A DNA stretch of 64,000 bases from Ignavibacteriota bacterium (GCA_963727825.1 CAVSHO010000009.1:736001-800000), one strand, 5' to 3'. Positions 674-41,782 are shown, counted from the stretch's first letter. The notes: generated by a model from the sequence alone, not told the origin. Numbers and translations are program-made.

Positions 674-746
674 AGGTCCATCCTTTCTTTTTTTAACGCT
701 TTTGATTATGTATCTCTGGATCCTTTGACCGTCTGGCCTGTATTTA

Positions 747-8336: not shown

Positions 8337-8372
8337 TATTAAGTGATAGATTTATCAAGAAACTGTCATGTC

Positions 8373-9391: not shown

Positions 9392-9444
9392 ACAAATTAT
9401 CCCTCAAGTAATATGGGACTCAAACAACAGGCAATGAATTAAGA

Positions 9445-11633: not shown

Positions 11634-11636
11634 CAC

Positions 11637-12371
11637 ATGTCAGTTATTACATTTGTCATAGATGAAGAACACTATAGTGCTCAAGAAGGAGATACAATAC
11701 TTCAGGTTGCACGTGATAATAAAATTCATATTCCCACCTTGTGTTATCTTGATGGTTTGTCCACTATTGGCGCTTGTCGATTATGTGTAGTAGAAATCGA
11801 AGGATCGCCAAAATTGTTTCCTGCGTGTACGACAAAACCCACTGAAGGCATCATCGTTCACACTAATACTGAACGGCTGAAAAAATATCGACGGATGATT
11901 GTAGAACTTTTGGCATCTGAAGGAAACCATGAATGTGCTGTTTGTGTGGTCAATGGGCATTGTGAGTTGCAAAATTTGGCATACGAAGTCGGCCTCGACC
12001 ACGTGCGCTTCACCTATCTATTTCCACATAAATCTCTCGATGCCACACACAAAGAATTTGTGCTGGATAGAAATCGCTGCGTCTTGTGTACGCGCTGCGT
12101 GCGTGTCTGCCATGAAGTTGAAGGTGCGCACGTTTGGGATATTGCTGGCAGGGGAATCGATTGTGAAATCATTGCTGAACTTAATCAGCCATGGGGAACA
12201 TCGGAAAGCTGTACCTCTTGTGGTAAATGCGTTCGTGTCTGCCCGACAGGCGCGTTATTTGAGAAAGGCGCTTCAATTGGCGAGATGCAAAAAGAACGTG
12301 GATTTATTAAGTATATCGTAAATGCGCGCAATAAGCGCGAGTGGGTACACACAGCTCAAGAAGATGAATAA
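11637..12371 (+). CDS. hoxU: Bidirectional hydrogenase subunit HoxU
   Basis: IPTLC, GACRLC, HECAVC, CVLCTRC, CTSCGKC..CP. Confidence 0.93.
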
Positions 12372-12449
12372 GATCGATGTAAAATAAATAATTGTTGAAT
12401 AAAAAAATGTAGTGAAAACGGAAACTGAAAACTCTCAACGAGAATAATT

Positions 12450-12986
12450 ATGAAACCAAGAGTAGCAACAGTATGGCTTGGAGGATGTTCCGGCTGTCAT
12501 ATGTCGTTTCTCGATTTAGACGAACGGCTTATTGAGCTTGCAGACAAGATTGAACTTGTCTATTCTCCATTTGCTGATGTGAAAGAATTTCCACAGAATG
12601 TTGATGTCGCACTCGTTGAAGGCGCAATTGCAAACATCGAAAACGAAGAGTTGGCGCATATCGTTCGGAAAAATTCTCGCATTATTATGGCATTCGGTGA
12701 CTGTGCAACGACCGGCAATGTAACTGCAATGAGGAATCCGATACCACTTGAAGAAGTTGAGCGGCGCTCATACATTGAACTTGCAGACAAGAATCCGCAA
12801 ATACCCGATGAATATACAACTATTGCCCAGCTTCTAAAAACAGCGCGGCCGTTGCACGAAGTTATCAAAGTAGACGTATGGCTGCATGGTTGTCCGCCAA
12901 CCGCCGATCAAATTTGGTTCGCTGTGAATGAATTACTGCAAGGTAAAATTCCTGTGTTGCCGCCGGCATATTTACGGTACGGATAA
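12450..12986 (+). CDS. hoxY: NiFe hydrogenase small subunit HoxY
   Basis: GCSGCHMS, GDCA, GCPP; short single-cluster small subunit. Confidence 0.93.
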   Translation: MKPRVATVWLGGCSGCHMSFLDLDERLIELADKIELVYSPFADVKEFPQNVDVALVEGAIANIENEELAHIVRKNSRIIMAFGDCATTGNVTAMRNPIPLEEVERRSYIELADKNPQIPDEYTTIAQLLKTARPLHEVIKVDVWLHGCPPTADQIWFAVNELLQGKIPVLPPAYLRYG

Positions 12987-13059
12987 TCGGATATCTAGAG
13001 CACGTTCCTTTATGAAATTTATAAAGGCAAAAATATTAATTGATTGAACTGAGAAAAAT

Positions 13060-14493
13060 ATGTCAAAAACAATAACATTAGCGCCTGTGACTCGCATCGA
13101 GGGTCACGCAAAGATCACTATTCAGTTGGATGATAACAGCGATGTCTTAGATGCTAAATTTCATGTAAATGAATTTCGGGGATTCGAAAAGTTCACGGAA
13201 GGCAGATTACTCTGGGAAATGCCGGGTATTACATCGCGAATTTGTGGTATCTGTCCGGCCAGCCATCTTTTAACATCGGCAAAAGCCGGTGATGATATTC
13301 TTGCGGTAGAAATTCCGGAGACCGCCGAGAAATTACGCCGCCTGCTAACGCTCGCACAGTGGCTGCAATCTCACGCGCTCAGTTTTTTCCATCTTTCTGC
13401 ACCGGATTTTCTGCTGGGCTTCGATTCCAATCCGGCAACGAGAAATGTGTTCGGCCTTATCGCTGCCGATAAAGAATTTGCAAAGCGTGGTATTCGTTTG
13501 CGAAAGTTTGGTCAGGAAATCATCGAGATTCTTGGCAGCCGCCGCATCCATACACCGTGGACGGTTCCGGGCGGTGTTCGCGAACCGCTCGATCCTGCAA
13601 AGAAAGATTATATGCTCGGCTGGATTCCTGAAGCGAAAGAAACTGTCGGGCTTGCTTTGGATGCGGTAAAGAAAATACATAAGAAGTTTGCAAAAGAAAT
13701 TCCAGAGTTCGGTAATTTCCGCTCACTACTTGTCGGACTTGTTTCTAAAGATGGCGGACTTGAGTACTATGACGGTTTTCTTCGCATTATGGATGGAAAT
13801 GGAAATACAATTGCCGACAAATTAGATCCAAAGAAGTTTTTTGAATACTTTGGTGAAGCAGTAGAGCCGTGGTCCTATTTGAAATTCCCGTACTATAAGC
13901 CGTTCGATTATCCAAAAGGAATGTACCGGGTTGGCCCATTGGCACGCTTGAACATTTGCGATTACATAGAAACACCGCTGGCAGAAGCTGAACGAAAGGT
14001 CTTTAAAAAGCTTGGCGGGAACGTTGGTGTTGTGAATAACTCATTCTATTATCATTATGCCCGCTGCATTGAAATGCTCTTTGCGGTAGAGAAAATAGAA
14101 ATGCTGCTAAACGATCCTGCAATTCTTGGTACAAATATTCGCTCTATGGCATCCATAAATAGGAGCGAGGGTGTCGGTTGTACCGAAGCGCCTCGCGGCA
14201 TCTTGTTCCACCATTACCACGTAAATAAAGACGGTGTTATCCAGAAAGCAAATCTTGTCATTGCGACAGCGCAGAATAATATAGCAATGAATCGTACTGT
14301 CCGCCAGATTGCGACGCATTTTATCGACGGCAAGAAAGGAAAAATTACAGAAGGCATTTTGAATCGTGTTGAAGCTGGAATCCGCTGTTACGATCCTTGC
14401 TTATCGTGTTCAACGCATGCGCTTGGCCAGATGCCGTTGCATGTAGAATTGGTAAATGCAAATGGAAAGGTACCTGACGAAGTTCGGCGATGA
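13060..14493 (+). CDS. hoxH: NiFe hydrogenase large subunit HoxH (group 3d)
   Basis: TRIEGH, L1 [11 protein letters not shown]2 [10 protein letters not shown] plus a cleavable C-terminal tail. Confidence 0.95.
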
Positions 14494-14924
14494 GCAAAAT
14501 ACTCGTCATCGGTTATGGCAACACGCTTCGTGGCGACGATGCGGCGGGCGTTCATGCCGCCGAGTTGATTGCAAAACACCATCCTGAAATCATCTGTGTT
14601 TGTGTGCACCAGCTTATGCCTGAATTAGCGGAACAGATAGCTGAATGCAACATTGTCTTCTTTATCGATGCGCAAAAAGATATCACTGAAACGAATGTAC
14701 GGCTTGTTACGCCCAATGTCGAGGCAGATCAGCCGCGCACTCATTTTATCTCGCCAGAATCTCTTCTTGCTCTGACTCAACAATTATACCAGCATTTACC
14801 AGCCAAGACATACGTGGTCGGTATCCCCGCATCACAGTTTGAATTCAGCGAAAAGCTTTCCGCACAAACAGATCAAGCAATGCATGAATGTGTTAGTTTA
14901 GTAGAAAAATACTTGACGCTATAA
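14490..14924 (+). CDS. hoxW: Hydrogenase maturation protease HoxW
   Basis: [14 protein letters not shown]; overlaps the hoxH stop. Confidence 0.88.
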
Positions 14925-20377: not shown

Positions 20378-20848
20378 ATGAAGGGCAACGATAAACTTCT
20401 CACAACATTGAACGAACTTTTAGCAGAAGAACTTACTGCTATTAGCCAGTATATGGTGCACTCGGAAATGTACGACAACTGGGGTTATGCAAAACTGCAC
20501 AAGTCGATTGAGAAACAGGCCGTCGATGAAATGAAACATGCTGAATGGCTAATCGGGCGTATTCTTTTCTTAGAAGGCATACCGATTATGTCCAAGCTCA
20601 ATCAAATCAAAATTGGTGCCGATATTCCTGCTATGCTATTGAACGATAGCAATGGAGAACAGACCGCAGTTCAGTTATATAACAAAGCTATCAATCTAGC
20701 GCGCGAAGTTTCTGATGCGGGGACAGCCGATTTATTTACAAAGATTCTTCTTATGGAAGAAGGACACGGCGATTGGCTGGGACAGCAACGTGATCAAATA
20801 GCACAAATTGGAATACAAAATTACTTGGCGAACCAGACGGGTGAATAA
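20378..20848 (+). CDS. bfr: Bacterioferritin
   Basis: MKG start, ELTAISQY, DEMKHA (ferroxidase residues and heme Met), RILFLEG, EEGH; RBS AAGGAGGA. Confidence 0.93.
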   Translation: MKGNDKLLTTLNELLAEELTAISQYMVHSEMYDNWGYAKLHKSIEKQAVDEMKHAEWLIGRILFLEGIPIMSKLNQIKIGADIPAMLLNDSNGEQTAVQLYNKAINLAREVSDAGTADLFTKILLMEEGHGDWLGQQRDQIAQIGIQNYLANQTGE

Positions 20849-20882
20849 CAACATGCGGATCTTGTTTCGACAATAGAATTTA

Positions 20883-20920
20883 AAAGCGAGTATGGGAGAT
20901 TCTGTGCTCGCTTTATTTTG
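20883..20920 (+). terminator. Intrinsic terminator after bfr
   Basis: AAAGCGAG...CTCGCTTT stem followed by ATTTTG. Confidence 0.7.
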
Positions 20921-20972
20921 TGCAAGAAAAAACCATTCACCTGTTCACTTTATGAGATAAACTAAATATCCT

Positions 20973-22058
20973 GTGAAACTCTTTACTCCTGATATGAAAA
21001 TGGCTGATGTTATTCACGGAAATTATTTATTAATGCCCGTAATCAATCGTTTTGGTGTATCACTGGGTGTCGGTGAGAAGACGGTGCGTGCAGTTTGTCG
21101 ACAACATAAAATTGATGTCGACTTCTTTTTAACAATTATCAATGCATATTCTCAAGAACATTATTTTCAGGAAAAGAAACTTCAGACGTTCAATGTACTA
21201 ATGATTGTCGATTATCTGCAAAAAACGCATCGATATTATATCGAAGCACAAGTTCCACTAATAGAAAAGCTGCTTAACAACCTGCTCCGCAAAGGCTCTG
21301 TCGATGTAAAGCGGCTTAGGCTCATCAAGAAATTTTTTCTGGAGTATAAGCAAGAGTTATTAAGCCATTTGGAACGGGAAGATGTCACGACCTTTCCTTA
21401 TGTTCGGAAAGTATATCGCCTGTTCAATACTCTTCGTCCCACTGCACAAGAAAAAAGGGCCCTCTCAAAATATTCCATGCACGTATATGAAGAGGAACAT
21501 AATAACGTTGATGAAAAACTCTACGACTTAAAAAATATCCTTATCAAATATATTCACGGCGATTCGATGGAACGGTTGTATCAAGAGGTAATCTTTGAGC
21601 TTTTCCGTCTTGAGAAAGACATTCTCGATCACACACGCATCGAGGATAATATTTTACTCCCGCTTGTGGCTGAAATGGAAGATGCATTGTTTTATCCAGA
21701 GGAACATTCAAAACGTACTGCGGGGAAAAACGCACTTACACAAAAGGCGACAAAAACGCTTGTGACACCCGAAGTAAAACCAAGCGAATCGCCGCAAGCA
21801 TTATATCGGATACCCTCTCATATTTCTAAAACAGGAACACAACAGTTTGAAGAACTCACTAAACGAGAACTTGAAGTTCTTCAACTTGTAGCATGTGGTT
21901 TTTTGAATAAACAAATTGCAGATAAACTTTCCATTAGCCTTCATACTGTTATTTCTCATAGAAAAAATATTACACGTAAACTCCAAATTAAAACTATCGC
22001 CGGGTTGACTGTGTACGCTTTGCTCAATGGATTGATTTCTCCAAAAAACATCACCTGA
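20973..22058 (+). CDS. Hemerythrin-like (ScdA/RIC-type) domain fused to a C-terminal LuxR HTH
   Basis: YLQKTHRYY, HLERED, EEEH, HTRIEDNILLP; C-terminal LTKRELEVL..NKQIADKLSISLHTVISHRKNI. Confidence 0.85.
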   Translation: MKLFTPDMKMADVIHGNYLLMPVINRFGVSLGVGEKTVRAVCRQHKIDVDFFLTIINAYSQEHYFQEKKLQTFNVLMIVDYLQKTHRYYIEAQVPLIEKLLNNLLRKGSVDVKRLRLIKKFFLEYKQELLSHLEREDVTTFPYVRKVYRLFNTLRPTAQEKRALSKYSMHVYEEEHNNVDEKLYDLKNILIKYIHGDSMERLYQEVIFELFRLEKDILDHTRIEDNILLPLVAEMEDALFYPEEHSKRTAGKNALTQKATKTLVTPEVKPSESPQALYRIPSHISKTGTQQFEELTKRELEVLQLVACGFLNKQIADKLSISLHTVISHRKNITRKLQIKTIAGLTVYALLNGLISPKNIT

Positions 22059-22120
22059 TTATCCTCGCTCTAATTTTGAATTTTAACATCCCACTCTGAT
22101 TCCTTCTAGGGTATTTATAA

Positions 22121-22140
22121 AATCCCTACTAATGGGGATT
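22121..22140. promoter_or_regulatory. Palindrome, candidate operator for the LuxR fusion protein
   Basis: AATCCCTACTAATGGGGATT (AATCCC-N8-GGGATT) between the regulator and the methyltransferase-feoAB genes. Confidence 0.5.
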
Positions 22141-22226
22141 GTTTACTTTTCCCCTTCCTTTATCTTACCATGGTGATCTTGGGATAAATTAGATGGCTAT
22201 GCAAATATTAAAAGGGGAATAGAACA

Positions 22227-22814
22227 ATGTCTCGGCTATCAAGAGCAGAATTTCAAGCGATGAATAGTCTTCCCAGAAGGCTATTACAAAAACATTATGA
22301 GCTTCCACGCTTAAAACACATGGGTGCTTGTTTCAATGGAAAAGATATTTTAGAAATCGGATGTGGCTCAGGATACGGAGCTATTTTGATACTGAGGGAT
22401 AAACCACTAAGTTATATCGGAATCGATGTAATGGAAGAACAAATAGCGTTAGCGCAAAAGAGAGAAATCCAAGGTGCAGAATTTCGAATTGAAGATGCAA
22501 CAAATATGCAATCCATCGAAGATGCAAGCAAAGATTTAATTGTGATTTTTGGAGCATTGCATCATATACCAGAATGGCCCGTTGCATTATCGGAGTGTCA
22601 TCGGGTTCTTCGATCTGATGGAGAAATATACTTGGAGGAACCTACTGGGAAATTGTTGGAATTATTTGATGGCAGATGGCTGCATTGGTATCATCCCAAG
22701 GAGGGCCACTTCTCACTTCAAGAATTGACTAGAAGCCTAACGAATACATGTTTTAGAACTCTTAACTTGTCATCATTTTTTGGCATCGGTTTTTATAAGG
22801 CACAACGAATATAA
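22227..22814 (+). CDS. Class I SAM-dependent methyltransferase
   Basis: ILEIGCGSG, ALHHIP, RVLRSDG. Confidence 0.88.
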   Translation: MSRLSRAEFQAMNSLPRRLLQKHYELPRLKHMGACFNGKDILEIGCGSGYGAILILRDKPLSYIGIDVMEEQIALAQKREIQGAEFRIEDATNMQSIEDASKDLIVIFGALHHIPEWPVALSECHRVLRSDGEIYLEEPTGKLLELFDGRWLHWYHPKEGHFSLQELTRSLTNTCFRTLNLSSFFGIGFYKAQRI

Positions 22815-22877
22815 GAGAATATTTTTGCCATTATTTCACGAAAACGTATTTTTCACAGAATGTTGGGGTAGGCAGAG

Positions 22878-25169
22878 ATGTTGAAACGCAGAAATCCTAT
22901 TGAGTTACCCGAATCCTTCACCGGAGAATCACATGGGGAAACAACTACATTCCCGGTACTAAGTGATCTCGTACCCGGAACACACAGCGTCGTACGTGGA
23001 TTGCGTGGGGGTCAAAAATTCATTAGCCGAATGGCTGCACTTGGTTTTACGTTGAAAGCCGAGGTAGATATTATCCAGAACCTCGGTCATGCAATCATCG
23101 TCGGTGTGCGCGGAACACAAATCGCACTTGGACGCGGTGAAGCTGCTAAAGTATATGTCAATGTACAGAAGGCAACTACTCAAAATAAACCGGTTGCACC
23201 ACCGGGTACAATCCGAGTAGCACTCACAGGGCAGCCGAACGCAGGCAAGTCCACTCTATTCAATTCATTGACCGGACTTACACAGCATGTTGGCAACTGG
23301 CCAGGCAAAACCATTGAGCAAAAGAGCGGCATCTATCAGCATGGGAATATTACGCTACAATTAGTTGACTTACCTGGAACCTACAGCCTGACAGCCAACT
23401 CGTTAGAAGAGCGGATTACACGAGACTATATTCTGACCGAACAACCGGATGTTGTGGTGGATATAGTAGATGCATCTGCACTTGAACGAAATTTGTACTT
23501 GCTTTCCGAGCTGCTTGCGCTACCAACACCTGTTGTACTGGGACTAAACATGATGGATGTTGCGGAAAAGCATGGTATTAGGATAGAACCTCATGTTCTA
23601 GAAGCTGCTTTGGGTTTGCCGGTTGTACCATTGGTTGCCACGAGAAATCAAGGTATTCAAGAACTTGTCCAGGCGGTCAAACAGGTTGCGCGTCAAAAAC
23701 AAAGCTATTCCCCGCATCGCCCTGAAATCCGTCTCGATCACAAAGCGGTGCTCGTCCAGCTTCGCCAAATCATTGCAGACAAAACACCTGCACCTTATCC
23801 ACCTGATTGGGTAGCGCTCAAGCTTCTTGAAGGAGATGAACAGATCACGCAAATAGTGCGCGAAAGTCTTGGTAATGCTGACTGGGTGCAGGTGCATGAA
23901 ATTCTTAAAGCGCACGAAGATGCCGTGCTGGCCATTGCTGGTGGCAGGTACGAATGGATAGAACGCATGGTGCGTGCAGCCGTAACGCGGCCTCGCGCCG
24001 GACAAATCACGGTGACAGAGCGAGTGGACCGAATTGCAACTCATCCTGTGTGGGGGTTTATGTTACTTCTAGGAATATTAGGATTGATCTTCGGGTTCAC
24101 ATTTGGTGTTGGGGCACCGTTGCAGAGATGGATGAACGAAGACCTGATCCAAACTGGAGCGGCAGCCCTGCGCATGAAACTTTCCGGTGCTCCTTGGTGG
24201 GTTACAGGTCTGTTGACCGATGGCATTATTACAGGGGCAGGAATGGTTTTCACTTTTTTGCCGATTCTTTTAATTTTCTTTACTGCGCTCGGGTTTTTCG
24301 AAGATGTAGGATATATGGCGCGAGCCGCTTATGTTATGGATCGCTTTATGCATTGGATGGGGTTGCATGGTAAATCGTTCTTGCCGCTTTGCATTGGCTG
24401 CGGTTGCAACGTACCGGGCGTATTGTGCACTCGTATTATTGATTCATCCCGTGCTCGATTGTTAACTATTCTGTTAATGCCCCTAGTACCTTGCACAGCT
24501 CGCTTTACGCTACTGGCTGTGCTCACACCTTTATTCTTTGGTCCTGCAGCGGTGTGGGTATCTGTCGGTGTAATAGGATTAAATTTACTTTTATTGATAG
24601 GAATAGGTTATGCTCTCCATGAACTAGTGCTTGGAGGAGAACATGTCGCCTTCATCATGGAGATGCCTCTCTATCATTTGCCGAACATACGCACTATTAG
24701 TTTATCTGTTTGGCAACGCACGTTGGAGTTTTTAAAAAAGGCCGGGGGCATTATCGTTGTCGCCTCTATAGTAATCTGGATTTTTTCAATCCTACCCGAA
24801 GGTAATCTGGAATCAAGTTACTTAGCGAATATCGGAAGATTCCTTGCTCCATTCGGGTCATTGATGGGTTTAGATTGGCATATGATAGTAGCGCTACTAT
24901 CCAGCGTAGTCGCCAAAGAAAATACAATTGTGACATTGGGAATTCTCTATCATGGAACTGGCTTGAATGCTCTTGGCGCTATTATAACACCTGCGGCAGC
25001 TTTAGCTTTCCTGGTCATTCAGGTGACATTTATCCCGTGTGTGGCAACCATAACAGCGATACGTCAAGAGACGCGCTCGTGGCGTTGGACGGTATTCATC
25101 GTATCACTTTTACTTGTTATATCGTTGATGACAGGTGTGTTGGTATACCAGATAGGACGCTTGCTATAA
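22878..25169 (+). CDS. feoB: FeoA-FeoB fusion ferrous iron transporter
   Basis: N-terminal FeoA (RMAALGF...VRGTQIALGRGEA); G1 GQPNAGKS, VGNWPGKT, DLPG, NMMD; gate motifs GCNVP, PCTAR, FIMEMP, PCVAT. Confidence 0.93.
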   Translation: MLKRRNPIELPESFTGESHGETTTFPVLSDLVPGTHSVVRGLRGGQKFISRMAALGFTLKAEVDIIQNLGHAIIVGVRGTQIALGRGEAAKVYVNVQKATTQNKPVAPPGTIRVALTGQPNAGKSTLFNSLTGLTQHVGNWPGKTIEQKSGIYQHGNITLQLVDLPGTYSLTANSLEERITRDYILTEQPDVVVDIVDASALERNLYLLSELLALPTPVVLGLNMMDVAEKHGIRIEPHVLEAALGLPVVPLVATRNQGIQELVQAVKQVARQKQSYSPHRPEIRLDHKAVLVQLRQIIADKTPAPYPPDWVALKLLEGDEQITQIVRESLGNADWVQVHEILKAHEDAVLAIAGGRYEWIERMVRAAVTRPRAGQITVTERVDRIATHPVWGFMLLLGILGLIFGFTFGVGAPLQRWMNEDLIQTGAAALRMKLSGAPWWVTGLLTDGIITGAGMVFTFLPILLIFFTALGFFEDVGYMARAAYVMDRFMHWMGLHGKSFLPLCIGCGCNVPGVLCTRIIDSSRARLLTILLMPLVPCTARFTLLAVLTPLFFGPAAVWVSVGVIGLNLLLLIGIGYALHELVLGGEHVAFIMEMPLYHLPNIRTISLSVWQRTLEFLKKAGGIIVVASIVIWIFSILPEGNLESSYLANIGRFLAPFGSLMGLDWHMIVALLSSVVAKENTIVTLGILYHGTGLNALGAIITPAAALAFLVIQVTFIPCVATITAIRQETRSWRWTVFIVSLLLVISLMTGVLVYQIGRLL

Positions 25170-25372: not shown

Positions 25373-26095
25373 CTAATGAGGGATCTCGCTCAGTGATCTC
25401 GCAAAGAAATTACTAAGCAGACACTGTTCTGCATTTTTGCAATTTTGAAATTCACAAAGCTCGTTTCCGTATAAGACTAGAAAGCGGCTACAAGTACGAG
25501 ACGCAAATTCGACATCATGAGTCGCAATAACAATTGAAGATGCAACAGAGCGCAACAGATTTGCCAGTGACAATTTTCCGCGTGGGTCAAGCGCCGATGA
25601 CGGTTCATCAAGCAGCATCACCGAAGGATTGGTGACCAACGCACCTGCTAGTGCGATTCGCTGGCGCTGACCGTGGGAAAGTTGAAATGGTGAACACCCT
25701 GCGATGTCCGATACGCCCAATGCCGCAAGCACAGACATGGCTTTTTCATGCGCTATTTTCGACGGTGTTCCTTTACGAATCAGGCTATATGCAACGTCAT
25801 CAATTACACGGGGAAACAGAATTTGATCTTCGGGAATATTGAAAAGGAACCCTGTCCGGTCACGTGCTTCCTGAAGGCTCTTTTTTTCAATAGGAATCCC
25901 ATCGATGAAAATAGACCCGGTGAAGGGCACCAGCCCTACTGCAGCGAGCAGTAATGTCGTTTTCCCTGACCCGTTGAGACCGAATAACGCCACTCTTTCA
26001 TCGTGATGAACATGAAAGGAAACATTGCTGATAGTATTCTTAGAATTTCCAGGATATCGGATGGTCACTGATTTAAATTCAAGTACTGGGTTCAT
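25373..26095 (-). CDS. ECF transporter ATPase (EcfA/CbiO-like)
   Basis: GLNGSGKT, PEDQIL, LSHGQRQR, LLDEPSSALDP. Confidence 0.9.
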   Translation of the reverse strand: MNPVLEFKSVTIRYPGNSKNTISNVSFHVHHDERVALFGLNGSGKTTLLLAAVGLVPFTGSIFIDGIPIEKKSLQEARDRTGFLFNIPEDQILFPRVIDDVAYSLIRKGTPSKIAHEKAMSVLAALGVSDIAGCSPFQLSHGQRQRIALAGALVTNPSVMLLDEPSSALDPRGKLSLANLLRSVASSIVIATHDVEFASRTCSRFLVLYGNELCEFQNCKNAEQCLLSNFFARSLSEIPH

Positions 26096-26847
26096 GCTAT
26101 AATTCTCAACCTCATAAGAATAGATGCTATGAGAACAACAGAAGCACAGATGATCGTCAGTACGTCGGCAATCGTCAATTTAATATTCTCACCTGAAGTT
26201 ACTGCCTCAACTCCATACCCTCGAACTGTCATTGCCGCTGCGGTTCGTTCTGCACGAAACATAATTCTCACCATCCACACAATTGGAAAAGAAAACAGAA
26301 CCCTTGTGCCTCGTACTCCTGATGCGCCTCTCAATCGAAGCACACCGATAATGCGCAACGTTTCTTCCATTAGAAGCATGGTTTGATTGATTAGCTGGAC
26401 TATTAAGATAATAAATGTCCTGGGAATTGGAATGTTTGCGAACCCCCGATGCACGTCTTGAATTGCAAGAATAGTAATCGTCGATGCGGCAATAAAAAGA
26501 ACGCATGTGCTGCGAAGTGCAATAGCTCCTGCCTGTGCAAAGCGGTCAACCATCGGTGCTGTCATAGACGAATCAACTGTCATCCAGGGGGTCAATAAAA
26601 AAAAGGGAAAGAAAAGAATGAGAGAGACAATAATACATCGGAAAAACATTTTTACCGGCATTGCCGCTAGCAAACACCAGCAGGTTGTGGAAATGATCAT
26701 GAGGGCTATACCAGTTATAGATTGCAACGGAATCAGTAAACAGCTACTGCCAAGCAGAATTCCCGAAAGAATTTTAATATGCGCGTACAGAGATTTCAGA
26801 GGACCCTTTCCACACCCCCAGAATGTAAAACCATCTTTCATAATCAA
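26092..26847 (-). CDS. ECF transporter T component (EcfT/CbiQ-like)
   Basis: Hydrophobic, with two Arg-Gly coupling motifs (LRLRG, MTVRG); coupled to the ATPase. Confidence 0.85.
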   Translation of the reverse strand: MIMKDGFTFWGCGKGPLKSLYAHIKILSGILLGSSCLLIPLQSITGIALMIISTTCWCLLAAMPVKMFFRCIIVSLILFFPFFLLTPWMTVDSSMTAPMVDRFAQAGAIALRSTCVLFIAASTITILAIQDVHRGFANIPIPRTFIILIVQLINQTMLLMEETLRIIGVLRLRGASGVRGTRVLFSFPIVWMVRIMFRAERTAAAMTVRGYGVEAVTSGENIKLTIADVLTIICASVVLIASILMRLRIIA

Positions 26848-27464
26848 ACCTTACGCGCTGATATTAGATATCCTGAATCATCGTCCAGTGTTTCTTCGAT
26901 GATAAAGCCGGATTGTTCAAGTAACACTGCAGTTAGAGATGCCGGTACTAGCATATGATTACTTATGACCTTGGAAGCTCCTGCGTGAGTCTTGTTTATT
27001 GTTTCACGTGATCTCAAATGCCAGATATGGAGTTTGCCGCTGGGTTTGAGCATACTCTGGAATAATTTTGCCGCTATTCCAGAATTTTCCAAGTGTGGCC
27101 AGACCGAATAGCAGATCACTCTATCAAATACATTTTTAAATGTAGTCATGTTCTCGACCGAATCACATACCCATTTAACGCGCAAATCATTTATTTTCGT
27201 TTGTGCAATTTCGATCATCCGGCTGGATATATCAACGGCAGTAATTCTGCCTGCTTGTGATAATTGACAAAGAATTGCAGCTGTTAAATTCCCGGTACCA
27301 CAGCCGACATCGAGTACATGCTCATCGGGACGAAGACCAAATCGCTTGAGTCCATTATCAAATTGAACTTCAAGCGAATTAAGATTTTCCCATGAATCCC
27401 ATTTCGGAGCGATAGAATCAAAATATGCGGCAATTGTTTGTTTAGAACTATCACACATCTTCAT
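26844..27464 (-). CDS. Class I SAM-dependent methyltransferase inside the ECF operon
   Basis: YFDSIAPKWD, VLDVGCGTG, VDISSRM, YSVWPH; overlaps both neighbours. Confidence 0.88.
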   Translation of the reverse strand: MKMCDSSKQTIAAYFDSIAPKWDSWENLNSLEVQFDNGLKRFGLRPDEHVLDVGCGTGNLTAAILCQLSQAGRITAVDISSRMIEIAQTKINDLRVKWVCDSVENMTTFKNVFDRVICYSVWPHLENSGIAAKLFQSMLKPSGKLHIWHLRSRETINKTHAGASKVISNHMLVPASLTAVLLEQSGFIIEETLDDDSGYLISARKV

Positions 27465-27984
27465 TTCCTGTTTGTATATTTGAATGGCCTACCGTACGAG
27501 AAATTCGAATGATTGCTGGAATAGCTACTATCATTAGAATGATTCCGGGCCATCCACTAAGAAGTGATACTCCGGCTATAAACTTAGCTGGCAATTTCAT
27601 GAGTAACGCCATAAGATAAATCAATCCTACGCCAATACATCTACCGACAAGTAGAATTGGAATAAAAATAATCAGCTCGTGAAGTTTTGGGAATAAAACG
27701 CGAACATAGGCGATGATTCCGCACATTGTTGCGAGTTCAATGCTCATAATAAATGCTATCGGAGGATAAAACGGCGGCATGCCGGTGATTGCACCGGAAA
27801 GCAGCGGCAACAGAAGCGCAGTCAGCATGGCAGGTATCGGCCCAACAAAAAAGGAAAGCGTCACCAAAGGTAAATACATAGGCATAAACATCGATCCAAT
27901 GTGAAAAACATGAAATATCACCGGCAGTAGCATCGCGGCCGCCCCGAAGACCGCACAATAAGCAATATCGCGTGGTTTAAGCAT
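27451..27984 (-). CDS. ECF transporter S component (vitamin-type, not NikM/CbiM)
   Basis: 177 aa, about 6 TM segments, GSMFMPMYLP, LSGAITGMPP, GWPGIIL; no N-terminal MH motif. Confidence 0.78.
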   Translation of the reverse strand: MLKPRDIAYCAVFGAAAMLLPVIFHVFHIGSMFMPMYLPLVTLSFFVGPIPAMLTALLLPLLSGAITGMPPFYPPIAFIMSIELATMCGIIAYVRVLFPKLHELIIFIPILLVGRCIGVGLIYLMALLMKLPAKFIAGVSLLSGWPGIILMIVAIPAIIRISRTVGHSNIQTGNEDV

Positions 27985-28090
27985 GGTTATTCCTTAAATG
28001 TCAGGCCGGTAAGAATGTCGGACTAAACATCAGATAATATAAAACAGATTCCTCACAATAAATAATATGACTTGATCTCGGCCCCTCTCA

Positions 28091-29917
28091 CTAGAGAGAC
28101 GCCCGCATTCCAACATTCACGGTTCTTCCCGGCATTGGATAACCGTAGATTGTTTGGTACGATTCATTTAAAACATTACGGCTTCCGATAGAAAGAGAAA
28201 TCTTTTCTGTTACTTGAGCTGCTACTCGAATTTCCATGTTTGTATAATCGGGTAATTGTTTCAAAGTATAGTCTGTTTCATCGGTTCCATAAATCGTATT
28301 GACATATTGTGCTGAGAGCAAAAAGGTTAATACATTCCAGCGGTATTCTCCGCCGAGATATGCTTTGTGTTTCGGTACGGCTTGGGCAACGTCGGGTTTA
28401 TCTGCAAAGGAATAATTTGCATTGATGGTAAAGTTATAAAAAGGAAGCAATTGTGCGGAGCATTCCACTCCGTCACGATGAAATCCGCCTGTGTTCCATG
28501 ATTTCATTCCGTACCAACTATCGACAATAGTGTTTTGTGCATCAATAAGATAACCGGCAATATCAATTGATGCATAATGGCTAAATACGTGAGAGATTCC
28601 GATTTCATAATTCCATAGGTTTTCCGGCTGTAATGTTCCATCCCTTGGAGTCAATTGATAGATTTCAAAAATCTGAGGTGCACGGTATCCTCGTCCAACC
28701 GATGCGCGGATGTTTGTTTCTTCTGTAAGTTTATATGTGATACCTGCCTGCGGTACGGCAATATCTCCAAAGTACGTATTATATGTATATCGAATACCGG
28801 CATTTGCCAGTAACCGATCACAGAATATCTGCTGCACGCTGATATATCCGGCATAATCTTCAATCGTATGCGTTCCCAAATCACCATATGCGTTCGATCC
28901 GTGTCCGCCGTTTTGTTGTACATCAATACCTGCACTAATTGTACTGCCGGTAGATAATTTAAATGATTGATAAGCTGTTGCAATAATCTGATGGTCGTCG
29001 GAAGTCCAACCTGCGTTATAAACCGGATCGAGTTCATTATGCCCTAAATTATACACAATATTAATACCGCCTTTTGATACCCAAAATCATTTTCAACGGA
29101 TGCACCAATATATCCACGCTGAATGTGCATCCAATCATTAGTATCAGGTTGTGTAATTTGTCCTGGATCAAATGTATTAAATTGAGTATAGCTTCCATCT
29201 ACAGAGAACCTATATTGTTCATTCAATTGATATGAAGTTTTAAGATAACCGCTGTTGGCAGTATATTCCGACCAAGGCCGTGAACCGTCGGTATGTTCAT
29301 GCGTAAAGGAACCTAATATATTCCAATTGTTTTCTTGATATCCAAGATGCAAGCCATATTGTTGTGCATCATCAGTGCCATATGAAATAGAGGCATTACC
29401 CAACATTCCATCTTGCTGCGTTCTATGAGTAATAATGTTAATTACACCGCCCATTGCATTGGAGCCGTACAACATCGATGCCGGACCGCGAATGACTTCA
29501 ATCCGTTCAGTATTCGTCGAGAGATAACTGTCGTTAATCGGATGTCCATACCATCCCATATATTGCGGGCGGCCATCAATGAGCGTGAGTACTTCGTTGT
29601 TAGGACTTCCGCCGATTCCCCGGATATTGATCTGACCGGAGGGCGAGTTCACACCAAATCCAAGAACATCCCGCTCAGCAATAAACACGCCAGGTACTTC
29701 TTGACTGATGAGTGAAAAAATAGATTTTTCTGGATTAGCACTTATTACATCGGCTGAAATGACGCTGATCGACGGCGATACCAAACTGCGAGAAGTTTCC
29801 GTCTTTGTTGCCGTTACTGTTACCGGATTTAGAATTGTACATCCGTGTCGTATCTATCTGCGCAAAGAGGATTATAGGAATAAATAATAAATAAATTATG
29901 CGAATAATTGTTTTCAT
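28091..29917 (-). CDS. TonB-dependent receptor split by two single-base frameshifts (about 29834 and 29081)
   Basis: Repaired reading: signal peptide, NPVTVTATK TonB box, plug (INIRG, LIDGRP, ERIEVIRGPASMLYGSNAMGGVINIIT), barrel ending YPMPGRTVNVGMRASL; 608 aa after repair. Confidence 0.88.
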
Positions 29918-29929
29918 AATGCTGATTCC

Positions 29930-29986
29930 TTTCTTTGTAATCTGAGATATTTCGTTAATATGTTTAGTAGACCGATTACAAAGAAA
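29930..29986 (-). promoter_or_regulatory. Leader hairpin overlapping the receptor ribosome-binding site
   Basis: 13-bp perfect inverted repeat TTTCTTTGTAATC/GATTACAAAGAAA; the 3' arm on the mRNA runs into AAGAAAGGA, 12 nt before the ATG. Confidence 0.5.
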
Positions 29987-30054
29987 CGGAGTGATAGGAA
30001 GTCCAAATAATAGTATTTACACCTATCATGATAGAACGTGCAAATTGATAAGGA

Positions 30055-30483
30055 TTATTTCCCATGATGATGACCTTGCAATGCCATTGTCAGCGTAAGC
30101 TTTCCATGTTTCACACCTTTGAAGCTTATAAGTTTTTCTGCGATGGTTTTTAGTACTACAGCTTTTCCTTTTAGCAGGACGACCTCCATGCAATGATCAT
30201 GATCAACGTGGACATGAGATGTCGATATAATATTCTCATAATAATCATGCTGAAGATTGGACAGAGATTTTTCCAGTTCCCGCTTATGGTGATCATATAT
30301 AAAAACCAATGCACCATAGACGATACCGTCGGGCGTTTTCACGCTTTCTTCAACAAGCGCATCACGCACAATATCGCGGACTGCTTCTGATCTGTTTGTA
30401 TATCCTTTTTGCTCAATGAGGCAATCGAATTGGTGGAGTAAATCCTCCTCCATCGACACGCTAAATCGGACAAGTTGTTCCAT
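30055..30483 (-). CDS. nikR: Nickel-responsive regulator NikR
   Basis: RHH N-terminus RFSVSM...YTNRSEAVRD; YDHH; HVHVDHDHCME; GVKHGKL. Confidence 0.96.
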   Translation of the reverse strand: MEQLVRFSVSMEEDLLHQFDCLIEQKGYTNRSEAVRDIVRDALVEESVKTPDGIVYGALVFIYDHHKRELEKSLSNLQHDYYENIISTSHVHVDHDHCMEVVLLKGKAVVLKTIAEKLISFKGVKHGKLTLTMALQGHHHGK

Positions 30484-30493
30484 GACATTCTCC

Positions 30494-30520
30494 GTGTTAC
30501 AATTATAATAATTGTAACAC
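30494..30520. promoter_or_regulatory. Putative NikR operator
   Basis: GTGTTACAATTAT-A-ATAATTGTAACAC, perfect 13-bp arms, 10 nt upstream of the nikR ATG. Confidence 0.8.
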
Positions 30521-30539
30521 TTTTTGGGGAAGAAATCAA
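30511..30539 (-). promoter_or_regulatory. sigma70 promoter of nikR, overlapped by the operator
   Basis: Minus strand TTGATT-N17-TACAAT with an extended -10 TG. Confidence 0.65.
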
Positions 30540-30707
30540 GATGCGTTTTTGTGTTTGTTTATATTGAGAGGAACTTAGTCCGACATCTCCACAGTGCAGT
30601 TCAAATTCAATGAAGTTTTTTTGCACAAACAGATATTGCAATGCATGAATGTGTTAAGCTCGTGAATAGTGTGATTCATGAGGCATAAAAGAGCGTGAAA
30701 ACCGGGC

Positions 30708-31460
30708 TTACTTGTCAGAAGGAAGTAATGAAATAATTTTAAACGCTGCTGCTGCCGCTCCAACACCATTATCGATATTGACAACCGAAACGCCCGGAGC
30801 GCAACTCGTTAGCATCGCAAAGAGCGCAGTGAACCCCGAAAGCGCAGTGCCATACCCGACGCTTGTTGGAATTGCAATGATTGGCTGCGGATAAAGTCCT
30901 GCGATGACGCTTGGGAGCGCGCCTTCCATCCCGGCTGCAACAATAAGGACATCACAATCACGCAGCTTCATATCGTTTGCAAACAGACGATGAATTCCAG
31001 CAACACCCACATCAAAAACTCTTTGAACTTCTACACCGAGACTTTCTAAAACAAGTGCCGCTTCTTCGCACGCTGTAATATCAGTGGTTCCGGCGGAAAC
31101 AATACCAATTCGTCTCCCGGAAACTTGCGGCAGCGGTTTCCCGATACGGAAGGAACGCGCATCTTTTAAAAACAATCCCTGTGGAAAAGCTTTTCTTAAT
31201 TGCGGGAAAAATTCCTTCGGGCAGCGTGTACCAATCACAAGTTTTTGTTTTGCATAAAGCGCTTTTGAAATTGCAATAATGCGCTCAACTGATTTATTTT
31301 CACAGTAAATCACCTCAGGAATCGAAGTTCGATCGCGGCGTGACATATCGAGCTTTGCATATTCTTCAATAGCGTGCAACGATGATGAATGAAGTTGTGC
31401 TTTGTTGTGAGTGAATTTACGATTTTGATGGATTGCTGAACGGGACTTTCTATTTTGCAT
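30708..31460 (-). CDS. larB: Nickel-pincer cofactor biosynthesis protein LarB
   Basis: PEVIYCENK, SAGTTD, DVGVAGIHRL, AGMEGALPSV, PTSVGYG, VNIDNG; ATG at 31460 overlaps the larE end. Confidence 0.92.
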   Translation of the reverse strand: MQNRKSRSAIHQNRKFTHNKAQLHSSSLHAIEEYAKLDMSRRDRTSIPEVIYCENKSVERIIAISKALYAKQKLVIGTRCPKEFFPQLRKAFPQGLFLKDARSFRIGKPLPQVSGRRIGIVSAGTTDITACEEAALVLESLGVEVQRVFDVGVAGIHRLFANDMKLRDCDVLIVAAGMEGALPSVIAGLYPQPIIAIPTSVGYGTALSGFTALFAMLTSCAPGVSVVNIDNGVGAAAAAFKIISLLPSDK

Positions 31461-32253
31461 TCTGTAGAATCTCCCGATTGAGCTTGCCGGATTTAAACCC
31501 TTCTTCATCTATAAGCACTTCTTTGTATCCTAACGATTTCAGAAACCCCTGAACATCGTCAAATATTACCGTAAGTTTTGTAATCGCCCAGGAATCCACC
31601 TCGATTTTTGCAGTTGTTTGAAAGTGTCGAACGCGCACATTTGTAAATCCTTTTTCCCGAATGTAGCGTTCAGCTTGTGCAATCATACTGATAGAAGTTC
31701 TATCGATCATTGTTCCATAAGGAATACGTGAAGAAAGGCATGGCGCAGACGGTTTATCGTGATTCGGCAAACCATATAATAGAGCAGCATCTCGGACATC
31801 CTGCTTGGTAAATTTGGCTTCAATCAATGGAGAGCGAATTTGATATTCTTTTGCGGCAATTCTTCCGGGACGATAATCCCCGATATCATCTAAGTTTGCA
31901 CCATCAAGCATGAACGGGATATTCTCTTTCCCTGCGATTTCGCCAAGCTGCCGATAGAGTTCTTGCTTGCAGAAATAACACCGATTAATAGGATTTGCTG
32001 CATAATTTTTTATCTCAAGTTCGTTGTATGCAATTTCCCGAAAATTGAAGTGATGCATTTCCACTATTGTCCGTGCAAGATCGATATCTTCCGTTGTAAT
32101 AGTATCTGTTACCGCAAGAACAATGAGTGCATTCTTGCCAAGCACTTTATTGGCGACAAAAGCAACTAGCGTCGAATCCACTCCTCCGGAATATCCAACG
32201 ATCACCTTTCCCCAATTTTGAATAAGAGCCTCAAGCTGCTCTGTTTTTTGCAT
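31450..32253 (-). CDS. larE: ATP-dependent sulfur transferase LarE
   Basis: PP-loop SGGVDS, RCYFCK, DYRPG, PCLSSRIPYG, RVRH, GFKSG. Confidence 0.93.
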   Translation of the reverse strand: MQKTEQLEALIQNWGKVIVGYSGGVDSTLVAFVANKVLGKNALIVLAVTDTITTEDIDLARTIVEMHHFNFREIAYNELEIKNYAANPINRCYFCKQELYRQLGEIAGKENIPFMLDGANLDDIGDYRPGRIAAKEYQIRSPLIEAKFTKQDVRDAALLYGLPNHDKPSAPCLSSRIPYGTMIDRTSISMIAQAERYIREKGFTNVRVRHFQTTAKIEVDSWAITKLTVIFDDVQGFLKSLGYKEVLIDEEGFKSGKLNREILQNAK

Positions 32254-33166: not shown

Positions 33167-33622
33167 ATGTCTATAGATGCAAAATATGTTCATACAAATT
33201 TAATCGCGCGTGATTGGCAAAAGTTGTCTTTGTTTTATCAAGAAGTATTCGGCTTCAAGCCGGTTCTGCCTGAGCGACATTATAAAGGTACCGATCTTGA
33301 ACGCGGCACAGGTGTCAGGGGATCGGAACTTCATGGTATTCACTTGCGGATGCCAGGATATGATGACGGCGGCCCAACATTGGAAATATACACATACACA
33401 ATCCCGGAAGAAGGATCGGTTCCTGCTGTTAATCGTCCTGGATTTGGACATATTGCCTTGTCCGTTACAGAAGTAAGGGATGCTCAAGAAATAGTTCTGC
33501 AAGCCGGTGGAAAAGCTGTCGGAGAAATCGTAACTTTACATACATCTACGGGAGCTAAGGTAACTTGGTGCTACGTAACAGATCCTGAAGGCAATATCAT
33601 CGAATTACAATCATGGTCATAA
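33167..33622 (+). CDS. VOC/glyoxalase-family protein (cassette 2)
   Basis: YVHTNL, GFGHIAL, YVTDPEGNIIELQ. Confidence 0.88.
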   Translation: MSIDAKYVHTNLIARDWQKLSLFYQEVFGFKPVLPERHYKGTDLERGTGVRGSELHGIHLRMPGYDDGGPTLEIYTYTIPEEGSVPAVNRPGFGHIALSVTEVRDAQEIVLQAGGKAVGEIVTLHTSTGAKVTWCYVTDPEGNIIELQSWS

Positions 33623-38072: not shown

Positions 38073-40962
38073 TTATTTAAATTCTTCCATTGGTGGGCAT
38101 GTGCAGAAAATATTCCGATCACCATAAGTGTTGTTAATTCGACCGACAGCAGGCCAAAATTTATTTTTTTTGAGAGAGGAAACTGGGAATGCTGCTTGTT
38201 CGCGCGAATATTTGTGATTCCACAAATCGCTTGTCACTATCAAAGAAGTATGTGGCGCATTCTTCAAAGGATTATCAATTCTATCAAGCTTCCCATCAAT
38301 GATGCCCTGTATCTCATTCCTGATGGCGAGCATTGCATCGATGAAGCGATCAAGTTCTGCTTTTGGTTCGCTTTCGGTTGGTTCAATCATCATTGTGTCA
38401 TGAACAGGAAACGATATCGTCGGGGCATGGAAACCATAATCCATAAGACGTTTCGCAATATCATCTACTTCAATCCCAGCCTGTTCTTTGAAGGAATTCA
38501 TGTTTAAAATAAATTCATGCCCCACTCTTCCATTTTTGCCTTGATAGAGAACCGAAAAATGACTTTCTAGTTTTGATTTCAGATAATTAGCATTGAGAAT
38601 AGCGGTTTTTGTGACCTCTTTTAATCCTTCCGTGCCAAGCATTTTGATATACGCATAAGAGATAAGTAAAATACTCGCGCTACCCCACGGAGTAGAAGCA
38701 ACTGCGTGTATGGCTTTTTCACCACCGACTTTCAAAATCGAATGTCCGGGCAAGTACGGCGTAAGATTCTGAGTTACACAAATGGGCCCCATTCCAGGAC
38801 CGCCACCGCCATGCGGAATTGCAAAAGTTTTATGTAAATTGATATGGCAAACATCTGCGCCAATTTCTGCGGGAGTTGTAAGTCCAATTTGCGCGTTTAA
38901 ATTTGCACCATCCATATAAACCAAACCGCCATTTTGGTGGATGATATCGCATATTTCTTTAATGCGCTCTTCAAACACACCGTGTGTGGATGGATACGTT
39001 ACCATCAAAGCGGCAAGCGTGTCCTTGTATTGTGTTGCCTTTGCCTGCACGTCGTCCACATCAATATTGCCATTCGAATCGCAATTCACGACGACAACTT
39101 TCATTCCGGCCATCACGGCACTGGCAGGATTAGTGCCATGCGCGGATGATGGAATAAGTGTAACGTTACGTTTTGATTGTTCGTGATCCAGATGAAAAGC
39201 GCGAATCACCAGCAAGCCGGTTAGCTCTCCCTGAGCGCCGGAATTCGGCTGAAGCGAGGCCGCTGAAAAACCGGTAGTCTTACAAAGCGAATTTTCCAAT
39301 TCCTGAAATATCTTGAAATATCCTATTGATTGATCGGCTGGTGCAAACGGATGAATGTTAGCAAATTCCGGCCACGTTAACGGAAGTAATTCTGTCGCAG
39401 CATTCAATTTCATTGTACAAGAACCGAGTGGAATCATCGATGCCGTAAGCGAGAGATCTTTGTTCTCCAAACTCTTAATATAACGCATCATTGCCGTTTC
39501 AGAATGATAGGAGTTGAACACTGGATGCCTGAGAAAAGAACTCATTCTTTGAAATGGAAACGGATATAAAACAGCCGTCGATCCAAATGAAGTGTTGAAT
39601 GATCCTTTATTGACAGCGGCGCCTTTCACTTTTGCAAAGACATTTACCATTGCTTCGATATCTTCAGATGAAGTTGTTTCATCAAGTGAAATGCCGATGT
39701 ATTTATCTTCAATGAAACGAAGGTTATAACCTGCTTCGACAGCAAGTTGAAGAATATGCATCGCTTGTTTTTCGTCCTTCATTTCAATTTTCAGCGTATC
39801 AAAATAAATTTCATTTAGTTGTCTGAAGCCTCGTTTTATTAGTTCCGTATCTAACAATTTAGTCAAGCGATGAATGCGGGTCGCTATATTCTTGATACCC
39901 TCGGGTCCGTGATAAACTGCATACATCCCGGACATTATTGCTAATAGGGCTTGCGCTGTGCATATGTTTGATGTTGCTTTCTCGCGGCGGATGTGCTGTT
40001 CACGGGTTTGAAGTGCTAGGCGATATGCAGTATTGTTTTGTGCATCAATTGAAACACCGATGATCCGGCCGGGCATGTTGCGAATGTATTCATCTTTAGT
40101 CGCAAAGAACGCCGCATGCGGACCACCATAACCGAGTGGAATTCCAAATCGCTGAGAGTTACCGATAACAATATCTGCGCCAAATTCACCCGGAGGGGTT
40201 AACAGTGCTAACGCCATTAAATCAGTTGCGACAATAGCAATTGCGCCTGAGTCATGCACTTTCTTGATAAATCCACGCCGGTCAATTACCGCACCATCTT
40301 CACAAGGATATTGAATTAACGCTCCGAAGAATGATTTATCAAACTCCACTGTATTAGGATTACCAACGACAACTTCGATATTATGTGGAGTGGCGCGTGT
40401 AAGAACAACATCAATAGTCTGGCGGTAACATCGAGCAGAAATAAAAAATTTATTTGCCGGTTTTTCTAGGGATCTGTTGACAATACCATACGCCATCGCC
40501 ATTGCTTCTGCCGCAGCAGTGCCTTCATCTAACAACGAGGCGTTCGCAATAGGCATTTCTGTAAAGTCTGAAACCATTGTCTGGAAGTTGATAAGCGCCT
40601 CGAGCCGGCCCTGCGAAATCTCTGGTTGATATGGTGTGTACCTGCGTGTACCAACCTGGATTCTCAAAAATATTTCGCCGAATAACACTTGGAGTAATGC
40701 AATTATAATATCCCTGACCTAGAAACGACTTAAGCACGATATTATTCTTTGCAATCTCTCGAAGTTCATTCAGTATCTCGTACTCTGTAACCGCGGGATC
40801 CATTTGGATTTGCTGCTTACTACGGATGGTTTCTGGAATTGTTTGATCGATCAATTCATCGATCGAACTAACGCCGACAGCATTGAGCATCTCGGGAATT
40901 TCATGCTCACGGGGGCCGAGATGTCTAGAGAGAAATTCATTTTTAGGTTGCACTGTTTTCAT
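38073..40962 (-). CDS. gcvP: Glycine dehydrogenase (decarboxylating), with a +1 frameshift at about 40641
   Basis: RHLGP; removing one G restores [18 protein letters not shown]; [12 protein letters not shown]; PLP motif HINLHKTF; 962 aa after repair. Confidence 0.95.
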
Positions 40963-41782
40963 TCTCAGCCTTAGAAGGTAAAGGATTTAGTTGGATGTGC
41001 TTAAGCGCTTGCGCTGCAGCAGCCTGTTCAGCTTCTTTCTTGCTTCTGCCAAAACCACTACCATAAAACTGTGTGCCAATTAAAACTTCTATGGTAAAGC
41101 GCCTATCATGTTCGGGCCCTTCTTCATGTATAACAGAATAACGTGGAATACCCAGCGAGCGTGCTTGCGCATATTCAAGCAGTGTGCTTTTATAGTTGTC
41201 ATCTGTTATAGCAGAATTGAACACTTTGGTGTTTTTCAATAGTGTCGCATAAATAAATTTTCGCGATGCTTCCAATCCGCCGTCCAAATATATAGCTCCG
41301 ATAACAGATTCGACAGCATCCGCAATAATTGACTCTGAGCCGTTATCAATAGATTGCGCTGCGCTTGAGCTCAACAGCATATAATCTGATAAGTGTAAAT
41401 CTTTTGCCCGTTGTGCCAGAATTTTCCTGTTGACTAACCGCGAACGTAATTTTGTCAGTTCCCCCTCTTCCATCTCAGGGTAAATTACGAAGAGGTGCTC
41501 CGCTACTACAAAATTCAAAATTGCATCGCCTAAAAATTCCAGTCGTTCATTGGAATTCCACTGATCTTCGAGAAACTGAAGATAGGAACGATGAAGCAGT
41601 GCTTGCAGGAAAAGTTTCCAATTGTGCGGATAGTACTGAATGGCTTCTGTGAATCGTACAAAATCAAATTTTGTAGAGTGGAGTTTCTCTATAAGTAATT
41701 GGAACTGCTCGTCCCGTGAGTAACGAGAAAACCATTGTATTCGAAGTCGGCAACAAAGCCGACGGAGTACGTTATTCAACAC
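40943..41782 (-). CDS. rnc: Ribonuclease III
   Basis: NERLEFLGDA, EGELTKLRS, dsRBD GRSKKEAEQ. Confidence 0.96.
   Translation of the reverse strand: MLNNVLRRLCCRLRIQWFSRYSRDEQFQLLIEKLHSTKFDFVRFTEAIQYYPHNWKLFLQALLHRSYLQFLEDQWNSNERLEFLGDAILNFVVAEHLFVIYPEMEEGELTKLRSRLVNRKILAQRAKDLHLSDYMLLSSSAAQSIDNGSESIIADAVESVIGAIYLDGGLEASRKFIYATLLKNTKVFNSAITDDNYKSTLLEYAQARSLGIPRYSVIHEEGPEHDRRFTIEVLIGTQFYGSGFGRSKKEAEQAAAAQALKHIQLNPLPSKAENENSAT

Follow-up and report, generated by a model that had tools for sequence, protein, structure and literature searches.

A NikR-linked ECF importer with an attached methyltransferase in an Ignavibacteriota genome, a candidate for the uptake of nickel on a small organic ligand

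The present analysis deals with a window of 64,000 nucleotides (nt) from the genome of an Ignavibacteriota bacterium (GCA_963727825.1, CAVSHO010000009.1:736001-800000; all window coordinates are counted from the first letter of this stretch) and with a gene cluster in it that codes for a TonB-dependent outer-membrane receptor, an importer of the energy-coupling factor (ECF) type and an S-adenosylmethionine (SAM)-dependent methyltransferase (MT), which is located next to the S component of the importer. The arrangement of these genes is far beyond chance and recurs at 34 loci in other genomes. The gene and a predicted operator of the nickel regulator NikR connect the cluster to nickel, and we consider it highly probable that the unit carries out nickel-regulated uptake. 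The complete reading, according to which nickel on a small organic ligand is taken up across two membranes under nickel repression and is methylated by the MT attached to S, has in our judgement an even chance of being correct, and the part of it that names an organic nickel complex as the cargo, methylated on arrival, stands slightly below that mark. Within this reading, we infer that nickel represses the operon, in which direction the transport runs, that the cargo is organic and what is methylated.

The cluster is part of the run larE-larB-nikR-TonB receptor-S-methyltransferase-T-A, which was defined by calls of open reading frames (ORFs) and family profiles and lies entirely on the minus strand, from 32253 down to 25373. 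Its transport part starts with the receptor gene (28091-29917, approximately 608 amino acids (aa), Plug 78.9 bits, barrel 108.8 bits), which is followed by the ECF S component (27451-27984, 177 aa, six helices, a member of an unnamed family), the class I SAM methyltransferase (26844-27464, 206 aa, Methyltransf_25, 67.5 bits), the ECF T component (26092-26847, 251 aa, CbiQ PF02361, 25.5 bits at a cut-off of 25) and the single gene for a putative ECF-type ABC ATPase, the A component (25373-26095, 240 aa, ABC_tran, 91.1 bits). According to the ORF coordinates, S and MT overlap by 14 nt, whereas MT and T as well as T and A overlap by 4 nt each. An earlier annotation made from the DNA alone, here called the sequence-only reading, had named these genes and pointed out their shared orientation and the overlaps of S, MT, T and A, all of which is borne out by the ORF coordinates and profile scores. 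The assignment of the T component gains from its homologue in one related locus (L023), which reaches 50.2 bits with CbiQ, and the T alignment contains two invariant arginines. The best NCBIfam rows of the A component all remain below their cut-offs, namely cbiO with 148 bits versus 211.8 and ECF_ATPase_2 with 146.6 versus 330.

The related loci were obtained by scanning one genome per species for relatives of S, and their genes were found by tblastn with the window proteins. All 34 genome records are metagenome-assembled genomes (MAGs), which are labelled Ignavibacteriota/Bacteroidota, Aminicenantes/Acidobacteria and Spirochaetota, some also Clostridia or Eubacteriales, and database matches come in addition from MAGs labelled Verrucomicrobia, Lentisphaerae, Fibrobacterota-like, Latescibacteria and Kiritimatiellae. 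The S family is large, comprising 911 representative clusters (50% identity) at E <= 1e-10. S adjoins the MT gene in 33 of the 34 loci and the remaining one is truncated behind S; 28 loci contain the ATPase and 25 the receptor. Clustering of the 458 ORFs from the 34 loci yielded no widely shared neighbour beyond the six core genes but only lineage-specific ones (Fer4/CbiA, peptidases, ZnuA/ABC-3, SAM synthetase). In the relatives, neither hypA, hypB, hoxH, feoAB and bacterioferritin nor the second methyltransferase of the window was found near the cluster.

The regulator itself is well defined. The product of nikR (30055-30483, minus strand), a nickel-responsive repressor of the ribbon-helix-helix type (NF003381, 175.6 bits, cut-off 105), carries the domains RHH_1 (PF01402) and NikR_C (PF08753) above the curated score, and its residues H79, H90, H92 and C98 align gap-free with the His/His/His/Cys set of Escherichia coli NikR (1q5v), which we take to be the high-affinity nickel ligands of that protein. 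At 11 nt upstream of the nikR start, positions 30494-30520 form the perfect inverted repeat GTGTTAC-N13-GTAACAC, which is the sole match without mismatch in the window and also in the 3.12 Mb genome. The predicted site was matched to the NikR consensus of delta-proteobacteria, GTGTTAC-[N13/14]-GTAACAC, as given in the NikR passages of PMC545781. A promoter-like -10 hexamer lies inside the operator and a promoter-like site on the minus strand spans 30539-30511. Among the related loci, a NikR-type box with no more than 2 mismatches precedes the first cluster gene in 22 of 34 cases, ten of them perfect, at a chance expectation of approximately 1.4 boxes for spacer 13 (440,631 bases, equal base frequencies). 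The nikR gene lies beside the cluster in 15 of the 34 loci, and 25 possess either nikR or a box. The proposal of the sequence-only reading that receptor, S, MT, T and A constitute a conserved import unit with a link to nickel is thereby upheld.

The association with nikR was also analyzed in a sample of 201 genomes from the class to which the window belongs, 19 of which were matched by the S profile. Four weak matches (G045, G128, G168 and G163) gave no tblastn match to the cluster proteins and were excluded from the nikR count. Of the 15 remaining genomes with the S family, 14 possess a nikR gene, which in 12 cases lies on the same contig and no more than 4 kb away; of the 182 genomes of the class sample without S match, 30 possess nikR. 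Membership of G128 in the S family was rejected, since its ORFs reveal a different S family, PF12822, with DUF362 and a ferredoxin next to it. In locus L043 (5965-9076, plus strand) the gene of a PF12822 S component precedes those of a DUF362 protein and a multi-cluster ferredoxin; this is the other S family nearest to the profile.

Other modes of control were considered as well. No Rfam family reaches its gathering score in the window, and the only cis-regulatory match in the 9 of 34 related loci that were scanned is one SAM riboswitch, in L024 (1917-2033, minus strand), which is situated in front of a SAM synthetase gene (537-1739, minus strand) and approximately 6 kb away from the cluster, so that riboswitch control was rejected. 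A group of four related loci carries a gene for an archaeal-type SAM synthetase, which lies approximately 6 kb upstream of the cluster. Elsewhere in the genome, a NikR box with 1 mismatch on contig 7 was set aside, because it sits within a long ORF, and no NikR box was found ahead of the hyp/hox genes of the window.

The S component is the most unusual part of the transporter. Its sequence has no Pfam match at E <= 0.01, no NCBIfam match and no match to CbiM/NikM, and a comparison with the sequences of solved structures gave only a chance-level match. Its AlphaFold model (AF2; pLDDT 88.2, pTM 0.82) displays the helix pattern of S components, and its best matches in the PDB are all S components (RibU with a TM score of 0.66, FolT, ThiT, BioY and PanT; TM 0.58-0.66), none with a Foldseek E-value below 1e-3. 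The Atlas neighbours of the model are named ECF S components, too. Judged from the PDB matches of the model, S appears to be of the vitamin type by fold and not a NikM/CbiM protein, as had been assumed in the sequence-only reading. It shares the six-helix fold with the vitamin-type proteins RibU, FolT, ThiT, BioY and PanT, but differs from them in having dedicated T and A genes rather than relying on a shared module, in its nickel regulation, in the attached enzyme and in the absence of any sequence match to the solved chains.

An alignment of 23 homologues revealed as invariant residues of S P21, F24, H25, F33, P35, M36, P39, P60, S63, T67, G68, M69, P70, P71, P74, P75, M80, E83, R115, P146, G147 and P156; the family shows the motif TGMPPFYPP. 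By comparison with solved S components, the invariant residues should map to the loops that follow helices 1 and 3 and to the beginning of helix 4, the substrate-binding region of those proteins, and would line a putative outward-facing pocket. Such a site can be regarded in two ways. The ECF nickel importers known so far all transport the free ion, and the presence of the invariant H25, M36, M69, M80 and E83 in helix 4 and in loops predicted to face outwards, together with the control by NikR, would be consistent with an S component that binds bare Ni2+ (or Co2+) via His, Met and Glu, while the MT would have an accessory role in regulation or in the modification of proteins or lipids. However, the six-helix fold of the vitamin type without match to the CbiM family does not fit well to this explanation, and a small-molecule MT that is obligatory and sometimes even fused to the transporter has no evident job on a bare ion. 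We therefore regard import of the free ion as rather unlikely. Because a small-molecule MT is obligatorily tied to S, nickel on a small organic ligand is the most likely cargo.

The features of the MT agree with a small substrate. The glycines of SAM motif I (G54, G56 and G58) and the acidic residue D78 after strand 2 are invariant in the alignment, and P123-H124, H149 and H160 are conserved. The nearest folds to its AF2 model (pLDDT 95.7) are UbiG, phosphatidylethanolamine (PE) N-methyltransferase, Coq5, BioC and RebM, with E-values down to 6e-14; hence, as far as the model goes, the fold is of the small-molecule methyltransferase type. Sequence matches to solved chains are generic. The database label UbiE/MenG was rejected, because the protein scores 65.5 bits versus 216 with NF001244 and 58.1 versus 158.35 with TIGR01934.

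The connection between S and MT goes beyond the neighbourhood of their genes. Forty longer database proteins (329-427 aa) are homologues of S, 39 of which have precomputed methyltransferase Pfam domains, and 12 of the best 150 S representatives have a length of at least 317 aa with S at the N-terminus. One of the longer proteins, P0248 (384 aa, 13 member sequences), was checked residue by residue as the sole example; it comprises S in residues 5-176 (56% identity) and MT in residues 185-376 (48%) and is, by this sequence comparison, a true S-MT fusion. The equivalents of H25, M36, M69, M80, E83 and R115 of S as well as D52, D78 and H124 of MT are invariant in 24 longer proteins, and those of H149 and H160 are retained in 90% or more of them. 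The MT therefore most probably acts while it is joined to S at the cytoplasmic end.

A second class I methyltransferase is encoded in the window (22227-22814, plus strand), directly upstream of a FeoA-FeoB fusion, and is 19% identical to the MT of the importer. It is part of an iron-related block (20378-25169, plus strand) that also includes bacterioferritin and a RIC-like di-iron protein with a DNA-binding end of the LuxR type.

The receptor gene needs some comment. The sequence-only reading had listed a TonB receptor at this place; the gene is indeed present, but not as a single open frame. Signal peptide (29735-29917), plug (29044-29784) and barrel (28091-29056) are located on ORFs in three different frames, and an alignment with the intact gene of L006 placed the frame breaks near 29834-29871, a poorly alignable part, and near 29079, in an A/G run. 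In the relatives, the receptor gene is intact and codes for 600-620 aa. The glycine dehydrogenase gene gcvP of the window (38073-40986, minus strand) is frameshifted as well, near 40640, with its first approximately 95 residues in another frame, and one extra base behind 29079 is present in a short-read contig (run X5, depth 2.5, 98.7% alike). These three findings, i.e. intact relatives, a further frameshifted gene and the extra base, suggest that the receptor breaks are probably assembly errors. The short-read contigs did not span 29824-30100, the region of the first break. Split genes also occur in two related long-read MAGs, affecting MT in L002 (8522-9140) and S in L005 (8001-8521).

The profile matches of the receptor bear on the nature of the cargo. 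The BtuB-type model for TonB-dependent B12 receptors aligns over its full length with the intact relatives, at 163-170 bits and thus far below the cut-off of 599.7, and no equivalog cut-off of NCBIfam is reached by them. This alignment and the vitamin-type fold of S would be compatible with the import of a nickel tetrapyrrole, a cargo already raised in the sequence-only reading, or of a corrinoid-like metal cofactor, with the MT acting on the macrocycle. We know of no nickel-tetrapyrrole enzyme in these phyla, for which no search was made. Moreover, the receptors of two other relatives obtained their best score with the general siderophore-receptor model, the MT resembles enzymes of the UbiG, PmtA and BioC type instead of tetrapyrrole methylases, and a cobalamin riboswitch was found neither in the window nor in 9 of the 34 related loci, making such a cargo very improbable. 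Selenocysteine-motif TonB receptors appeared among the weak NCBIfam matches to the receptor, and the Spirochaetota locus L009 contains a tRNA-Sec gene (3319-3407, plus strand) approximately 2 kb from the divergently oriented receptor gene.

The genome codes for nickel enzymes. Genes for hypA, hypB, hoxE, hoxF, hoxU, the small and large hydrogenase subunits and a maturation protease are located at 8343-14924 on the plus strand, approximately 10 kb from the importer, and the hydrogenase is of the bidirectional Hox-type Ni-Fe class. Searches of the whole genome (96.8% complete) gave no match to CbiM/NikM (PF01891), NiCoT, HupE/UreJ or NikA. Hence, the importer operon is the only candidate nickel importer that was found by sequence searches in this nearly complete genome.

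This situation is also relevant for another explanation, in which the unit would import a nickel-free organic micronutrient when nickel is short, i.e. for nickel sparing, and the MT would trap or activate the cargo. The vitamin-type fold of S and the coupled small-molecule enzyme would suit this idea, but the genome codes for nickel enzymes and shows no match to any other nickel importer searched, and a TonB receptor adjacent to nikR is the usual signature of metal acquisition. We assign a low probability to a nickel-free cargo, higher than to a tetrapyrrole and below that of the free ion. In its favour, NikR regulons elsewhere also include genes without a function in nickel transport, for example the operon of an Fe-only hydrogenase, as mentioned among the regulon members in PMC545781.

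A special role of the upstream genes had been suspected in the sequence-only reading. The genes larE (31450-32253, TIGR00268, 285.5 bits, cut-off 150) and larB (30708-31508, NF033503, 257.3 bits, cut-off 175), which belong to the biosynthesis of the nickel-pincer nucleotide (NPN) and together occupy 30708-32253 on the minus strand, are upstream neighbours of the importer outside the conserved unit. Their adjacency in this one window could mean that the unit works together with LarB and LarE and imports an NPN precursor or a salvage form. However, both larB and larE are missing from the 8 kb around the S gene at all 34 related loci, even in relatives whose S is 79-88% identical, and the NikR box between larB and nikR suggests a separate promoter. 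Further lar genes are located elsewhere in the genome, with larC at a distance of approximately 210 kb and a weak larA-like gene on a different contig; therefore, the lar genes look like an ordinary dispersed NPN pathway. The suggested link of the importer to larB and larE is thus abandoned, the sequence comparisons do not support an import of NPN precursors, and we attribute hardly any probability to it.

Two details of this region should be mentioned. The larB ORF has a 52-residue N-terminal extension past the LarB model and overlaps by 59 nt with the end of larE, and translation may actually begin at a position further downstream. A protein of the glyoxalase/VOC family is encoded on the opposite strand (33167-33622, plus strand), just upstream of the lar genes. 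Some glyoxalase I enzymes are nickel-dependent.

Several observations weigh against the nickel-repressed uptake of an organic nickel complex in the form proposed here. A bare metal ion could just as well be bound by the invariant residues H25, M36, M69, M80 and E83 of S. Nine of the 34 loci are without the receptor, which is therefore not obligatory, and only one of the two receptor breaks in the window is contradicted by an independent contig, at a depth of 2.5. Likewise, neither nikR nor a box is found in nine loci; these include short contigs and also the three Spirochaetota loci L009, L010 and L018 with full flanks. NikR proteins serve in some bacteria as activators of genes, too. The genome contains no nicotianamine-synthase-like gene, and the ligand would therefore have to come from another route or from other organisms. 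Finally, the S family and CbiM/NikM co-occur in 1 of the 201 sampled genomes versus 1.1 expected (19 x 12 / 201); this overlap is at chance level and gives no sign of a replacement of NikM by the S system.

With these points in mind, the following sequence of events can be envisaged for an organic nickel complex as cargo. When nickel is scarce, NikR would leave the 27-bp operator, the position of which suggests that nikR, the receptor gene and the ECF genes would then be transcribed. The TonB-dependent receptor would carry the cargo across the outer membrane, and a dedicated ECF importer, built of one S, one T and probably two copies of one A, would carry it across the inner membrane. In the cytoplasm, the cargo would meet the SAM-dependent MT, which is presumably bound to the C-terminus of S in the Ignavibacteriota bacterium, where the two are separate proteins, and which is fused to it covalently in other bacteria. 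Methylation of the nickelophore ligand on arrival might weaken its hold on nickel, or it might trap or detoxify the ligand. The nickel could then be passed on to HypA/HypB and LarC.

A comparison with known systems makes the combination of features more evident. Like NikMNQO, NikKMLQO and CbiMNQO, the ECF importers for Ni2+/Co2+, the unit represents a dedicated operon with its own CbiQ-like T and putative CbiO-like A components, and it would serve nickel enzymes. Unlike NikMNQO and CbiMNQO, it is devoid of NikN, NikK and NikL, its MT is embedded or fused, and a TonB receptor is usually present. Because the defining CbiM/NikM subunit is absent, the unit is not a member of these systems. A NikR-regulated TonB receptor for nickel is known from Helicobacter pylori, where FrpB4 and FecA3 fulfil this function together with NixA and other carriers in the inner membrane, but without an ECF module or an MT. 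The receptor of the present cluster resembles FrpB4 and FecA3 in its predicted control by NikR, whereas the attached ECF module and MT set it apart. Transport coupled to a modification of the cargo, which leads to trapping or metal release, is represented by PnuC with the NadR kinase, by the PTS and by the acetylation of ferrichrome in E. coli. These examples involve neither an ECF transporter nor methylation, and in none of them is the enzyme covalently joined to an S component. To our knowledge, an ECF-dependent route for a natural nickelophore has not been reported so far. Regarding regulation, the NikMNQO-type operons of delta-proteobacteria are controlled by NikR via the GTGTTAC-N13/14-GTAACAC operator, as is predicted for the unit here, as far as the operons treated in PMC545781 are concerned. 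The statement of the sequence-only reading that no characterised system has this composition agrees with the literature searched, in which no description of such a system was found; this includes passages of the comparative genomics studies PMC545781 and PMC2667541.

Outside model bacteria, it is largely unexplained how nickel is obtained for hydrogenases, CO dehydrogenase, urease and the nickel-pincer cofactor, and an import unit of the kind described here is of interest in this regard. A fusion of an enzyme to the S component would be a novel principle in ECF transport, and the identity of the methyl acceptor would give a direct handle on the ligand. It is conceivable, although we put this forward only tentatively, that the unit represents the first ECF importer with a built-in enzyme, in which a methylation-driven group translocation would strip the nickel from a nickelophore that is possibly made by other members of the community, and which may provide a main nickel supply for many uncultured anaerobes.

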